This document shows, one piece after another, positions 45 through 3,903 of a stretch of 4,170 nt of DNA (position 1 is its first letter; each line of letters starts with the position of its first letter). This stretch comes from a virus (Duplodnaviria > Heunggongvirae > Uroviricota > Caudoviricetes), in IMG/VR virus record IMGVR_UViG_2713896777_000015, one strand, 5' to 3'. The position numbers were made by a program, and so were the translations under genes. Below the pieces are notes generated by a model. It did no database searches. It saw only the letters and a program-made list of their open reading frames with translations, and was not told the DNA's origin.

Positions 45-434
45 TCATAGCCTGCTTCTCCTGCTTCTCCTTGCCTTCCGGCACTCGCGACAGATTATGT
101 TTAGACGACTGTCGTAGCGACGTATTTCTCCGTCAGGTAATGACCAGATAAGGTCCGGATCAACCACAGCAGGTTTCTTCACCTTTGCCCTCGAGAGTTT
201 TTTGCGGGCGTTTTGCCAGTCCTTACGCGCCTGTTCAGACGGGAATAACCCGTAACCAGAGCTGTATACATCGCCACTGGCAACCAGCTCTCTGGCCAGA
301 ACGCTCATCAGATATCTTGTTGCCCCAGTTTTAGCTTCCAGTTGTCGTAACGTCTCGCGCCCACTCTGGCGTACGAGTTCCACCACCTGCCCTTTAATTT
401 TTTCCCGCTCTTCTTGTGTAAAAACTTTTGCCAC
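45..434 (-). CDS. Hypothetical phage protein (129 aa), possible winged-helix DNA-binding protein, last gene of the replication operon
   Basis: Complete ORF from the six-frame track. Start is GTG at 434, preceded by AGGAGG (revcomp of 439-444) with a 4-nt spacer. It lies 40 nt downstream of the replication initiator on the same strand. The segment LRQLEAKTGATRYLMSVLARELVASG resembles a helix-turn-helix, and the C-terminus is basic (RKARRSRRSRL). It occupies the position of lambda P / phi80 gene 14 but is too small for a lambda-P-type helicase loader. Function not established. Confidence 0.6.
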   Translation of the reverse strand: MAKVFTQEEREKIKGQVVELVRQSGRETLRQLEAKTGATRYLMSVLARELVASGDVYSSGYGLFPSEQARKDWQNARKKLSRAKVKKPAVVDPDLIWSLPDGEIRRYDSRLNIICRECRKARRSRRSRL

Positions 435-474: not shown

Positions 475-1440
475 TTATCCCCTGAAACCAGGCGGAATTT
501 CTGTATCCGGTTCAGAAATATGATTCACACAACGCTGTACAGGTGAACGTCCCAGGCGGATGACCAGTTCGTCCCATTTTTCGCGGAGTTTTGACGGGCT
601 CATGATGTTTTTTACCCAGAATTGATCTCGCTGTACCCGACCAAACATTTCGCAAATTTGTCTGTGGCTTCTGCCATCCAGCATCCGCATTGTGCGCACG
701 TCATTGGCCCAGGCTGTCCAGTTAGGCTCTTTTGGTCGCATGATCTCTCCATCGTCGCTGGCAGCCTGTTCGTAAAGGTTCACGATCCGCCCCCAAATCC
801 ACTGCGCACACGCCAAATCCTCCCTGCTACCCCACTGGCGTTTTTTCGCACTAAACACAACCGCGTCGGGGTTCCGGGTTAAAAAATCCTGTTCAGCGGT
901 CTGCTGGTCCGGTTGCGAAGCTTCCGGACGAAAAGTGTTTTTATTCTCTGTAGTAATCTCTGTTGTATTCTCTGTAAGATCATCAGGCCATTTTGACCCG
1001 ATGACATTGGGTCGTTTTGAACCAATGGAGCGTTTCATTTTGACCTCTTCCATCGTGTCATTTTGACCTGATGGAGCGGCGCATTTTAAACCGATGGATT
1101 CGCTCAATTTGCCACCATCTAAAAGCTCGCTCCCGTAGTTGATCGTGTAGAAATTGGTCATATCGCGCTTTGATTTATTGAGCTTTTCACAACGCAAAAG
1201 CCCCAGCGTTTTCAGACTTGCAAACGCGCGCTTTAACGTTGACTCTGACCAGAATGGGAACTGTTCCAGCCATTGTTCCGTTGTGTTGTAAATCCAGCGA
1301 ACACCATCACATTCCATGCCGGAATTGGTATCTCTCAACCAGTAATGCAACTGCTGCAACACAATGGCTTCATTTAAGCCAATCTTCATCGCAAGCTGTG
1401 TGTTTATAACCAGTGGGCGTTCAGCAAAAAGAAGGCTCAT
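475..1440 (-). CDS. Phage replication initiation protein (lambda O-like role) with N-terminal HTH domain and DnaT-like C-terminal domain
   Basis: The C-terminal residues VNHISEPDTEIPPGFRG closely match the C-terminus of E. coli primosomal protein DnaT (recalled as ...SEPDSQIPPGFRG). The N-terminal MSLLFAERPLVINTQLAMKIGLNEAIVLQQLHYWL is the typical HTH N-terminus of phage replisome organiser proteins. The gene body contains iterons. The track ORF starts at 1494; I prefer the ATG at 1440 (Met19) because it shortens the overlap with the upstream gene from 74 to 20 nt and has a weak GGA-containing RBS. The start is ambiguous (1494, 1440 or 1389). Confidence 0.8.
   Translation of the reverse strand: MSLLFAERPLVINTQLAMKIGLNEAIVLQQLHYWLRDTNSGMECDGVRWIYNTTEQWLEQFPFWSESTLKRAFASLKTLGLLRCEKLNKSKRDMTNFYTINYGSELLDGGKLSESIGLKCAAPSGQNDTMEEVKMKRSIGSKRPNVIGSKWPDDLTENTTEITTENKNTFRPEASQPDQQTAEQDFLTRNPDAVVFSAKKRQWGSREDLACAQWIWGRIVNLYEQAASDDGEIMRPKEPNWTAWANDVRTMRMLDGRSHRQICEMFGRVQRDQFWVKNIMSPSKLREKWDELVIRLGRSPVQRCVNHISEPDTEIPPGFRG
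943..978. repeat. AT-rich tandem 12-bp repeats (ATTCTCTGTAGT / AATCTCTGTTGT / ATTCTCTGTAAG) next to the iterons; possible DNA-unwinding element of the ori
   Basis: Seen in sequence: three consecutive 12-bp units with 1-3 mismatches in a locally AT-rich stretch immediately adjacent to the iteron block. They encode the repeated TENTTEITTEN peptide in the initiator linker. Confidence 0.45.
989..1100. repeat. Putative origin of replication: five ~23-bp iterons (core CATTTTGACC-GATGGAG) inside the initiator gene
   Basis: Seen in sequence: iteron cores begin at 989 (cattttgacccgatga), 1013 (cgttttgaaccaatggag), 1036 (cattttgacct), 1059 (cattttgacctgatggagcg) and 1082 (cattttaaaccgatgga). Spacing is 24, 23, 23, 23 bp. 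In lambdoid phages the ori iterons lie within the O gene between its N- and C-terminal domains, and that is where these sit. The repeats encode the IGSK peptide repeats in the protein linker. Confidence 0.6.
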
Positions 1441-2153: not shown

Positions 2154-2230
2154 CGCACCTCCAATATTGAGTTTTCTCAATGCTAATCACTCAAGGAATC
2201 TCAAGTCAAGGGTTATTAAGATATCTAAAT
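2154..2230. promoter_or_regulatory. Divergent promoter/operator region of the immunity switch between the cro-like and repressor genes
   Basis: Seen in sequence: a 16-bp palindrome ATTGAG-TTTT-CTCAAT at 2166-2181; direct repeats CTCAAG at 2190-2195 and 2200-2205; a GATATC-centred near-palindrome TTAAGATATCTAAA at 2216-2229 just upstream of the repressor ATG. A candidate - strand promoter for the cro-like gene has -35 TTGACT (revcomp of 2204-2209), an 18-bp spacer and -10 TAGCAT (revcomp of 2180-2185), so the palindrome overlaps the -10 and start site. I could not find a good + strand promoter for the repressor; the best -10-like element is TATTAA at 2214-2219, which would give a near-leaderless transcript as is common for PRM-type promoters. 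Confidence 0.55.
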
Positions 2231-2638
2231 ATGAACGAGAAAACTTTAGGTCAACGCATTAGAGAAAGACGTAAGCAGGTAGGCTTAAGTCAAAACGGTT
2301 TAAGCAAAGCTGCTGGCGTATCTGGCTCATCAATTTCATTATGGGAAAGTGACCATACAGCCCCGCGCGGGCAAAATTTGCATCGCCTCGCCGAGGTATT
2401 GCAATGTTCACCAACTTGGATACTGTTTGGCGACGAGGACAAAACACCAGCTCCCCCTGTTTCACTCGATAGTGCCTTAGACTTATCGGAAGATGAGTTA
2501 GAGATGCTGCGTTTGTATCGCGCACTTCCTAAATCAGAGCAACAAGCACAACTCAGCGAACTCCGCGCCCGCGTTGAGAATTTTAATCGCCTGTTCACCG
2601 AGCTATTAGAGGCTCGCAAACGCAACAAGCATCAATAA
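2231..2638 (+). CDS. dicA: XRE-family HTH repressor, DicA-like (CI-type prophage repressor), 135 aa
   Basis: N-terminal HTH (QRIRERRKQVGLSQNGLSKAAGVSGSSISLWESDHTAPRGQNLHRLAEVL) followed by LQCSPTWILFGDEDK, which I recall as essentially identical in E. coli DicA. The C-terminal region (...LSELRARVENFNRLFTELLEARKRNKHQ) is also DicA-like. Start placed at ATG 2231 (Met18 of the track ORF), matching the DicA N-terminus. The upstream extension to 2180 would overlap the operator and the cro-like start. Confidence 0.85.
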   Translation: MNEKTLGQRIRERRKQVGLSQNGLSKAAGVSGSSISLWESDHTAPRGQNLHRLAEVLQCSPTWILFGDEDKTPAPPVSLDSALDLSEDELEMLRLYRALPKSEQQAQLSELRARVENFNRLFTELLEARKRNKHQ

Positions 2639-2830: not shown

Positions 2831-2983
2831 ATGGATACTATCGATCTTGGCAACAACGAATCTCTGGTATGTGGCGTGTTTCCCAATCAGGACGGCACGT
2901 TTACCGCGATGACGTATACCAGAAGCAAAACGTTTAAAACTGAAGCTGGCGCGCGTCGCTGGTTAGCCAGAAACACTGACTGA
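2831..2983 (+). CDS. ydfA: YdfA-like small protein (DUF1391 family), 50 aa
   Basis: MDTIDLGNNESLVCGVFPNQDGTFTAMTYTRSKTFKTEAGARRWLARNTD matches my recollection of Qin YdfA, the first gene after dicA. Start at ATG 2831 with GAGGT (2822-2826) 4 nt upstream. The track ORF's 5' extension to 2675 lacks an RBS and runs through the predicted terminator and promoter. Confidence 0.7.
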   Translation: MDTIDLGNNESLVCGVFPNQDGTFTAMTYTRSKTFKTEAGARRWLARNTD

Positions 2984-2994
2984 TGAGGTTGACG

Positions 2995-3633
2995 ATGGAA
3001 TTTAAAGATTTACCTCCTTCAATCCAGGAGATTGCAGCACACACACTTCGTCATCGTCTGAACGAACTTGAATTGGAATCGGTAACGAAAAAAGACACTG
3101 ATAATATGGCTCGTAATGTGCGCGATGCGTTTACCGGATTGTATTTCTGTGCGTCTATAAATAAACACGACTCAGAGAGTGTGGCAAATAAAATTGCAGA
3201 AACGACAGCGCAAAACATCAATACGAAACCAACGGAAGAAGAAATTGATCAGTTTGCTCATGATGCTGGTTTAAAAAACAAGAAAGAAAAATCGCCATAT
3301 GCGGGGAACATGTTTGTTTATGACAATCTCATCAGAATTCGTGGCGAAATTCCGGCGGAATACCTGGCAAGAGTCCATCAGGCATTGCTTAAAAATTTGG
3401 AAACAGAATTATTTGATGGCAACACTAACGGTTTCTTCATGGTATCAGGCCTTGAGAAAGACTGGGATGCAGAAAAACGCTGGAATGTTGCTACATGGTT
3501 ATTCAGTAACAGAGCCGCTGCACTGGAAGCTTCGGCATGTATTTGCGGCCTGTTCTTAACAGACCACAAATATAATCTGGATGTGTACAGTTATATTTAC
3601 GCTGAACACGGTCCACTCTGGATTGACTGGTAA
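2995..3633 (+). CDS. Hypothetical protein, 212 aa, no recognisable motif; AT-rich cargo gene in the repressor-distal early operon
   Basis: Long ORF (track 2983..3633). I prefer ATG 2995 because GAGG (2985-2988) lies 6 nt upstream; the alternative ATG at 2983 overlaps the ydfA-like stop (TGATG). GC content is visibly lower than the flanking backbone. I see no Walker A, HTH, HNH or other motif I can name. It sits where Qin carries ydfB-ydfC-dicF-dicB and where lambdoid phages carry accessory genes. Confidence 0.75.
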   Translation: MEFKDLPPSIQEIAAHTLRHRLNELELESVTKKDTDNMARNVRDAFTGLYFCASINKHDSESVANKIAETTAQNINTKPTEEEIDQFAHDAGLKNKKEKSPYAGNMFVYDNLIRIRGEIPAEYLARVHQALLKNLETELFDGNTNGFFMVSGLEKDWDAEKRWNVATWLFSNRAAALEASACICGLFLTDHKYNLDVYSYIYAEHGPLWIDW

Positions 3634-3843
3634 TTATAAGGAAACACCAGCAGGGCCGCGGCGACCAACAGAACGATTAAAATCAATAATGCCATTATAA
3701 AGGACATTATTTAATTTATCGTCGAATGCTGATTCTGTGAGCCTCAACTCTGAATGAGTTTTTAATAACCCTGATTGCCTGAGTTGATTTACCAGGCATT
3801 CAATCTGTTTTTCAATAAGCGGATTTCTTTTTTTGTTTGGCAT
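3634..3843 (-). CDS. Hypothetical small protein (69 aa), convergent with the 212-aa gene
   Basis: Preferred start ATG at 3843 (Met5 of the track ORF) with GGAGG (revcomp of 3849-3853) and a 5-nt spacer, a near-ideal RBS. The track start at 3855 has none. Its stop codon (revcomp of 3634-3636) directly abuts the + strand gene's TAA (3631-3633), giving TAATTA. Basic N-terminus (MPNKKRNPLIEKQ...). AT-rich. No clear promoter found in 3844-3900. Confidence 0.5.
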   Translation of the reverse strand: MPNKKRNPLIEKQIECLVNQLRQSGLLKTHSELRLTESAFDDKLNNVLYNGIIDFNRSVGRRGPAGVSL

Positions 3844-3903
3844 TTTATCCTCCATTGAGGTTCTGGGTTAAAAATGGAGACCAACACGCTGTCACGTGTG
3901 GTC

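Follow-up and report, generated by a model that had tools for sequence, protein, structure and literature searches.

The question raised by this locus is whether a cluster of short repeats in the middle of a phage replication initiator gene is the site at which replication begins, or whether the repeats serve some other end. The gene lies in a 4170-bp window (the whole stretch of DNA that was analysed) from the IMG/VR virus record IMGVR_UViG_2713896777_000015, on the minus strand at positions 475-1440 (ATG at 1440-1438, stop at 477-475), and encodes 321 amino acids; the mechanical open reading frame (ORF) runs to 1494, and the start was set at the ATG at 1440 by annotated homologues. An earlier sequence-only reading had proposed that an origin of the lambda kind is embedded in this gene. 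We consider it very probable that positions 937-1119 are where a lambdoid prophage or phage (E. coli O26, mEp460-like) starts theta-type replication, an origin carried by the initiator gene itself in the part that codes for the linker. We favor this view because the repeats exceed chance, the constraint falls on the DNA, the layout recurs phage-wide, the iteron arms co-vary with residue 67 of the initiator, the parts stand in lambda order and the block beside the iterons has low duplex stability. That an origin may lie within its initiator gene is textbook knowledge; what is new here is a hybrid in which nature has joined RepA_N-like to lambda-O-like parts.

Positions 981-1119 hold six semi-palindromic iterons in 23-bp phase, reading CATCNGGTCAAAATGNCCNGATG on the coding (minus) strand in the best units, with core-to-core spacings of 23, 23, 23, 23 and 24 bp. 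The sequence-only reading had counted five iterons, spaced 23-24 bp apart around a conserved core. A repeat search recovered those five as 23-nt units at 981-1003, 1005-1027, 1028-1050, 1051-1073 and 1074-1096, with spacings of 24, 23, 23 and 23 as had been claimed, and a sixth, degenerate unit at 1097-1119 amends the count. The core is equally real: CATTTTGACCNGATGGAG is matched four times at up to 3 mismatches as compared to an expectation of 0.02, and 0 of 200 shuffles reached four. The units, all on the minus strand, are of unequal quality. Iteron 1 (1097-1119, GATGGTGGCAAATTGAGCGAATC) is degenerate and in 23-bp phase, and its Klebsiella counterpart, GATGAGGTCAAAGTGACCAAATC, is a good iteron copy; iteron 2 (1074-1096, CATCGGTTTAAAATGCGCCGCTC) is a half-site plus core, and iteron 4 (1028-1050, GAAGAGGTCAAAATGAAACGCTC) a core only. 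These three retain mainly the central (T/G)CAAAWTG or TTAAAATG, so that the good semi-palindromes are iteron 3 (1051-1073, CATCAGGTCAAAATGACACGATG), iteron 5 (1005-1027, CATTGGTTCAAAACGACCCAATG) and iteron 6 (981-1003, CATCGGGTCAAAATGGCCTGATG), the last of which is the best palindrome and adjoins the 12-mers described below. Iterons 3 and 6 are the best conserved; among the 57 alleles introduced below, iteron 3 is nearly invariant, and variation in iteron 6 amounts to one common polymorphism at an N position and one singleton variant.

Three tandem copies of the 12-mer ACAGAGAWTACW follow at 942-953, 954-965 and 966-977 (Tandem Repeats Finder, TRF, score 50), as the sequence-only reading had noticed, and together with an A-run they make up a putative DNA-unwinding element at 937-980 on the minus strand. 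Purines make up 67% of the coding strand at 939-980, where the A+T content is 71%, and no 36-bp segment of the gene has a less stable duplex than 937-972 by nearest-neighbour free energy (dG -41.3 as compared to a mean of -50.8, sd 3.3). The label “AT-rich stretch” given to this block is right in so far as 940-979, at 30% GC, is the lowest 40-bp window within the gene; it falls short in that A+T is just 71% and that the exact sequence, beyond its composition, is conserved. An inverted repeat, GTCCGG-N11-CCGGAC, was also observed at 907-929, just downstream of the 12-mer block in the direction of transcription.

One explanation that would deprive these repeats of any function in cis is that they are a by-product of a low-complexity protein linker. 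The repeats are indeed mirrored in the protein, which reads SIGLK/SIGSK/VIGSK and TENTTEITTEN, much as had been described from the letters; their assignment to the linker-coding part of the gene also agrees with the AlphaFold model, in which residues 85-203, the part encoded by the origin, have a predicted local distance difference test score (pLDDT) below 50 and are predicted to be disordered between folded flanking domains. Moreover, the 12-mers keep a single frame, encoding T-E-x-T, in 117 of the 120 matches listed in a pattern scan described below. Against this stands the distribution of polymorphism. A locus search by N-domain alignment returned only near-identical E. coli loci, which were used for this purpose: 80 IMG/VR loci gave 57 different alleles without indels, whose identity to the window is 90-100%. 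Third-codon positions are variable at 12 of 61 sites in the origin (gene nt 319-501) and at 152 of 261 elsewhere (Fisher p=3.6e-8), whereas first and second positions are not depleted of variation and, if anything, vary more within the origin (26/122 as compared to 72/522), and those origin positions that do vary coincide with the N positions of the palindrome.

The two classes of repeat bear this out separately. With a period of 23 bp, the iterons are spread over all three frames (core offsets modulo 3 of 2, 1, 0, 2, 1 and 1) and encode different peptides, so their repetition cannot be that of a peptide. In nine phages picked solely by homology of the initiator's N-terminal domain, the glutamate codons within the 12-mers are GAG in 23 of 23 cases, as compared to 78 GAG to 101 GAA elsewhere in the same genes (p=6e-8), and the threonine codons are ACA or ACT in 48 of 48, as compared to 65:75 elsewhere (p=2e-13). 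This bias persists in the Staphylococcus, Bacillus and Acinetobacter phages, the A+T-rich phages of Gram-positive hosts included, and one Bacillus copy of the 12-mer is translated in a different frame. The conservation of synonymous sites, the use of three frames, the codon bias and the disorder predicted for the linker, together with the co-variation of the palindromic arms described below, thus indicate that constraint in the origin acts on the DNA and not on the peptide, a reversal of the usual coding signature. The by-product explanation is in our view largely refuted, and we accord it almost no probability. A natural allele encoding 290 amino acids (P0015) shows how such a region can evolve within a gene: relative to the window it has lost exactly 31 codons, in frame, across 1005-1097 (93 nt, or 23+23+23+24), and with them four iterons. 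Since 23 is not a multiple of 3, the number of iterons changes solely in sets that preserve the frame.

The same layout recurs well beyond E. coli. A tblastn search with the 108-aa N-terminal domain returned 155 phage records from many genera, from which we retrieved eight whose identity is 43-76% (Klebsiella, Erwinia, Pseudomonas, Hafnia, Providencia, Staphylococcus, Bacillus and Acinetobacter phages). Iterons of the form NNNCAAAWTGN'N'N', in 22-24-bp phase, directly follow the N-terminal domain in seven of the eight, and ACAGAGA-type repeats come next in all eight, in degenerate form in the Staphylococcus, Bacillus and Acinetobacter phages; Pseudomonas phage AF has kept the 12-mers and has at most one iteron core. 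Across 61 distinct origin regions the two iteron arms change together (GGT/ACC, GGG/CCC, GGA/TCC, GAT/ATC, TAT/ATA and GTT/AAC), which is the pattern expected of a symmetric dimer site. The arms also track the protein: residue 67, at the start of the predicted recognition helix (residues 66-78), is S where the base 5' of the core is T (classes GGT, GTT and TGT), D where it is G (GGG and ATG), K or R where it is A (GGA and GAA), and V or I where the core is preceded by AT (GAT, AAT and TAT). The D-G pairing is seen in two arm classes, as is K/R-A, and S is common to GGT, GTT and TGT; the classes are not phylogenetically independent.

The 12-mer array appears to have a distribution of its own. 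A DNA-pattern scan of IMG/VR for ACAGAGAWTACWACAGAGA returned at least 120 stretches, and in 117 of the 120 listed the motif lies in frame near the middle of an ORF, mostly of about 250-370 aa. Most of the listed stretches carry the same N-terminal domain, while 20 of the 110 usable loci among them have other N-terminal domains and different iterons upstream (e.g., TAAAACGGAACA, CAGTYTGTCTACMCAAGACAAAC and TGCAAATCAYGAATCCGTG); for this reason we regard the array, on present comparisons, as a portable module common to several initiator families. It stands behind at least four unrelated iteron and N-domain classes (e.g., loci L091, L094 and L177) and its conservation extends to single nucleotides in phages of different phyla, those of E. 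coli and Staphylococcus among them. We also note that L091, an IMG/VR contig, has an HNH-nuclease-like insertion between the initiator's N-terminal domain and its iterons, and that its initiator combines the same 12-mers with a lambda-O-type C-terminal domain.

Such an array may serve simply for melting, may be recognized by a sequence-specific reader, or may be a patch at which recombination exchanges modules. In the last case its conservation would reflect a shared patch of homology through which recombination swaps iteron-specific N-terminal and host-specific C-terminal modules, with no need for the 12-mers in unwinding or loading. The same 19-nt string does sit at the module junction, between four unrelated N-domain and iteron classes and several C-terminal types, and lambdoid genomes are mosaic, as the patchy megablast coverage of this window illustrates. 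We nevertheless consider this account of the 12-mers rather unlikely: the motif is retained between phages of phyla too distant for recent exchange to be likely, and the block, in which the duplex is weaker than anywhere else in the gene, resembles the lambda unwinding region in position and strand bias. The roles of patch and unwinding element are in any case not mutually exclusive.

The protein itself is a replication initiator by its match to PHROG 391, “replication initiation O-like” (E=5.5e-93), which accords with the sequence-only reading; RefSeq labels it a “hypothetical protein”. Its likeness to the lambda initiator holds for one half and fails for the other. About residues 147-294 align with residues 135-270 of lambda O (34% identity over 148 columns, E=2e-28, BLASTP), and a helical C-terminal domain homologous to that of lambda O is modelled at about residues 186-294 (positions 559-885, minus strand; pLDDT 67-87). 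The N-terminal DNA-binding domain (about residues 1-105; positions 1126-1440, minus strand) belongs to a different family: BLASTP gave no alignment with lambda O, Pfam has no family match and no model for it, and searches of Pfam, NCBIfam and PDB sequences gave weak winged-helix noise (PadR, MarR, Cdc6_C and DnaD_N). The full-length AlphaFold2 model is poor (pLDDT 54.5) and informative only for the disordered linker; refolded with a deeper alignment of 36 diverse homologues, the N-terminal domain reached a pLDDT of 79.6, and the structures that matched this model were RepA_N-type plasmid initiators, followed by the Gram-positive primosome proteins DnaB and DnaD. A RepA_N/DnaD-type winged-helix fold is thus predicted. 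The PDB entries 4PTA and 4PT7 are RepA initiators of Staphylococcus aureus plasmids (pSK41/pTZ2162) and 5kbj is a complex of RepA with iteron DNA (PMC7145576). In RepA_N replicons, semi-palindromic direct repeats converge on an A-tract in the center of the rep gene (PMC7145576), and repeats of this design, convergent on an A-tract and central in the initiator gene, are found here. The case for a relationship of the N-terminal domain to RepA_N initiators consists solely of predicted structure and the architecture of the origin, since sequence profiles do not link the families: Pfam RepA_N (PF06970) gave no match at E<=1 among 9 N-terminal domains, and hhalign of the N-domain profile with pSK41 RepA gave a probability of 0.1, that is, no signal.

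The C-terminal domains vary among homologues. In the present initiator the last 21 residues, VQRCVNHISEPDTEIPPGFRG (478-540, minus strand), were recognized by phmmer and NCBIfam as a DnaT-like tail, matching the extreme C-termini of the DnaT chains 2ru8, 6aep and 9zbt (phmmer against PDB) and positions 160-179 of 179 of the NCBIfam DnaT model. Of 96 related initiators, 21 end in [IV]PxGFR[GS]-COOH, and their C-terminal domains differ. After the initiator no loader gene of the P, DnaC or DnaB type was found, the next gene being DUF977/Ren-like here and in mEp460_ev081 alike. Among the relatives retrieved, the three PxGFR carriers, those of the window, of Klebsiella and of Hafnia (in which the motif is internal, not terminal), have no annotated loader gene, and the Staphylococcus and Pseudomonas relatives, which are without the tail, encode a helicase or loader of their own; this distribution suggests that the DnaT-like tail may substitute for a P-type loader. 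The 2026 preprimosome paper states no contact partner for the extreme C-terminal tail of DnaT.

By analogy with lambda (PMC7466680) and pSK41, we infer the following route to initiation. The N-terminal winged-helix domain would bind the six 23-bp-phased iterons, probably as dimers. The iteron arms converge on an A-tract, the core GGTCAAAATGACC, and the outcome might be a bent nucleoprotein complex resembling the lambda O-some or the pSK41 RepA-ori complex. The bent complex, with supercoiling and probably with transcription from a pR-like promoter, would melt the three adjacent 12-mers, after which the lambda-O-like C-terminal domain with its DnaT-like tail might recruit the host helicase-loading machinery directly. 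A more tentative speculation is that the 12-mer array is a portable, sequence-specific origin element and not a passive A+T-rich patch, and that, together with the tail, it forms part of a widespread “initiator-solo” mode of helicase loading that does without P or DnaC. The 12-mers would then be read by something that very different hosts have in common, for instance the incoming helicase or loader, or the initiator once the DNA is single-stranded, as with DnaA-trios. Such an element would explain the nucleotide-level conservation, the association with at least four unrelated iteron and initiator classes, and a lambda region that resembles a decayed copy.

The iterons might alternatively be initiator-binding sites for control alone (autoregulation, titration or handcuffing, or exclusion of related phages), with replication starting elsewhere in the prophage. 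Plasmid iteron arrays do double duty in copy control, and three of the six iteron units here are degenerate. Cloned lambda ori fragments are reported to inhibit related phages (PMC3349717, PMC4488673). We regard this alternative as very unlikely: the iterons always adjoin the conserved, low-stability 12-mer block in lambda order, the equivalent region is the proven origin in lambda and in pSK41, and neither the repeat search nor TRF found a second repeat cluster in the 4.2-kb window.

A further alternative is that the region is an origin by descent that is dead in this copy, left over in an O26 prophage which is itself defective. Defects are common among lambdoid prophages of E. coli, and the 290-aa allele that lacks four iterons is a natural one. 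The gene, however, is intact; it differs from the 966-nt coding sequence of mEp460_ev081 at 3 positions, none of them in the origin, which is identical; the isolated phage HannyBb has the very same N-terminal domain (100% identity); and the 57 alleles indicate strong purifying constraint on the origin. A dead origin thus seems unlikely to us. Several points do count against an origin that works as proposed. Neither binding, unwinding or replication data for this element nor a paper describing this origin were found in the literature that could be searched, and the prophage copy could be inactive. Half of the iterons are degenerate, the 12-mers are merely 71% A+T, and the relation to RepA_N lacks support from sequence profiles. 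The single T-E-x-T frame in 117 of the 120 listed matches leaves room for a peptide role of the 12-mers, and common descent links the 57 alleles, and likewise the specificity classes, so that their independence is overstated by the statistics.

The surroundings are those of the immunity and replication region of a lambdoid prophage, in reverse orientation. E. coli O26:H11 str. 11368 and many other genomes carry the stretch 475-1494 with 100% identity, and the whole window is 97.7% identical to phage mEp460_ev081 over 77% of its length (megablast, with patchy coverage). By megablast, at least 80% of the initiator gene is present in 1747 of 5426 complete E. coli genomes, including O26:H11 Shiga-toxin-producing strains. 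The genes include a cI/DicA-like repressor gene (2180-2638, plus strand), a Cro-like gene (1926-2180, minus) and a cII/YdaT-like gene (1421-1942, minus); the last overlaps the initiator's start codon by 20 nt (1421-1440), an overlap which suggests translational coupling of the two. The DUF977/Ren-like gene that directly follows the initiator lies at 45-434 (minus), and a DUF1391 (YdaF-like) gene at 2675-2983. Next come a 216-aa ORF (2983-3633, plus) and a 73-aa ORF (3634-3855, minus), neither with a Pfam match; the region of these two ORFs varies between related phages, as seen in the patchy megablast coverage. A consensus scan (TTGACT-18-TAGCAT) and the gene order point to a candidate pR-like promoter upstream of the cro-like gene (2180-2209, minus), which would drive the cro-like, cII/YdaT-like and initiator genes and hence transcription through the origin. 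The scan for promoters and terminators gave no more sites than shuffled sequence and none within the origin, and Rfam gave no match at its gathering score and one sub-threshold chance match. Rac prophage oriJ/ydaU was considered as the closest relative and rejected: YdaU is an unrelated DUF1376 protein, followed by the DnaC-like YdaV.

If this interpretation is correct, a module that is common in E. coli genomes, hypothetical in RefSeq and without a Pfam model for its DNA-binding domain, provides a concrete, clonable putative origin of about 185 bp, together with a predicted specificity code that relates residue 67 to the iteron arm base. It also flags the possibility of helicase recruitment through a DnaT-like tail without a loader gene. 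RepA_N proteins are thought to be rare in Gram-negative hosts (PMC7145576), and RepA_N-like initiators may instead be widespread in enterobacterial prophages.

The three closest known systems allow the hybrid to be placed. One comprises Gram-positive phage initiators of the “DnaD-like” or replisome-organizer kind (e.g., Staphylococcus phage P954 gp20 and Bacillus phage TP21-L gp32), whose N-terminal domains are truly homologous (46-51% identity) and whose genes carry CAAAWTG iterons at a 22-23-bp period and then ACAGAGA-type repeats. Their C-terminal domains differ from that of the E. coli initiator, and P954 encodes a helicase loader and a DnaB-like helicase downstream. We found no experimental work on the origins of these Gram-positive phage initiators. 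Plasmid pSK41 repA (locus L212, 13613-13754) has the repeat period and layout seen here, with four GTGTCAAAAGGACAC iterons at a 23-bp period and, after them, three GATACTGATTTTATT repeats of 15 bp, all central in the gene; its repeat region is a proven origin and the linker peptide that it encodes is dispensable (PMC5703833). Similarity at the sequence level is not detectable with RepA of pSK41, pTZ2162 or the Vibrio cholerae PLE, the C-terminal domain binds DnaG in pSK41 and is lambda-O-like here, and the present module is a phage element in a Gram-negative host.

The lambda origin, finally, comprises four iterons and an A+T-rich region within gene O, with six iterons in Shiga-toxin (Stx) phage variants. 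Unwinding at initiation depends critically on the A+T-rich region, which together with two iterons makes up the smallest fragment able to unwind (PMC7466680). The arrangement in lambda order that had been claimed for the present gene is upheld: the origin is central in the initiator gene, and DNA-binding domain, iterons, A+T- and purine-rich block and C-terminal domain follow one another as in lambda. The iterons are likewise semi-palindromic around TCAAAAYG and spaced about 20-24 bp apart, the C-terminal domains are homologous (34% identity), the operon position after cro-like and cII-like genes is the same, and the lambda A+T-rich region is 74% A+T and 67% purine as compared to 71% and 67% here. 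The lambda A+T-rich region (ACAAAAGA... TCAGAGAAT) resembles a decayed version of the 12-mer array. The differences are as clear. The N-terminal DNA-binding domain is unrelated in sequence to that of lambda O; the iteron arms read CATCNGG as compared to ATCCCTC in lambda, in keeping with the earlier remark that the iteron sequence is another one; the 23-bp period is strict; the unwinding block is a sequence-conserved array of 12-mers; there is no P gene; and the C-terminus is DnaT-like, unlike that of lambda O. This natural hybrid thereby connects the lambda origin with the RepA_N origins of Gram-positive bacteria.

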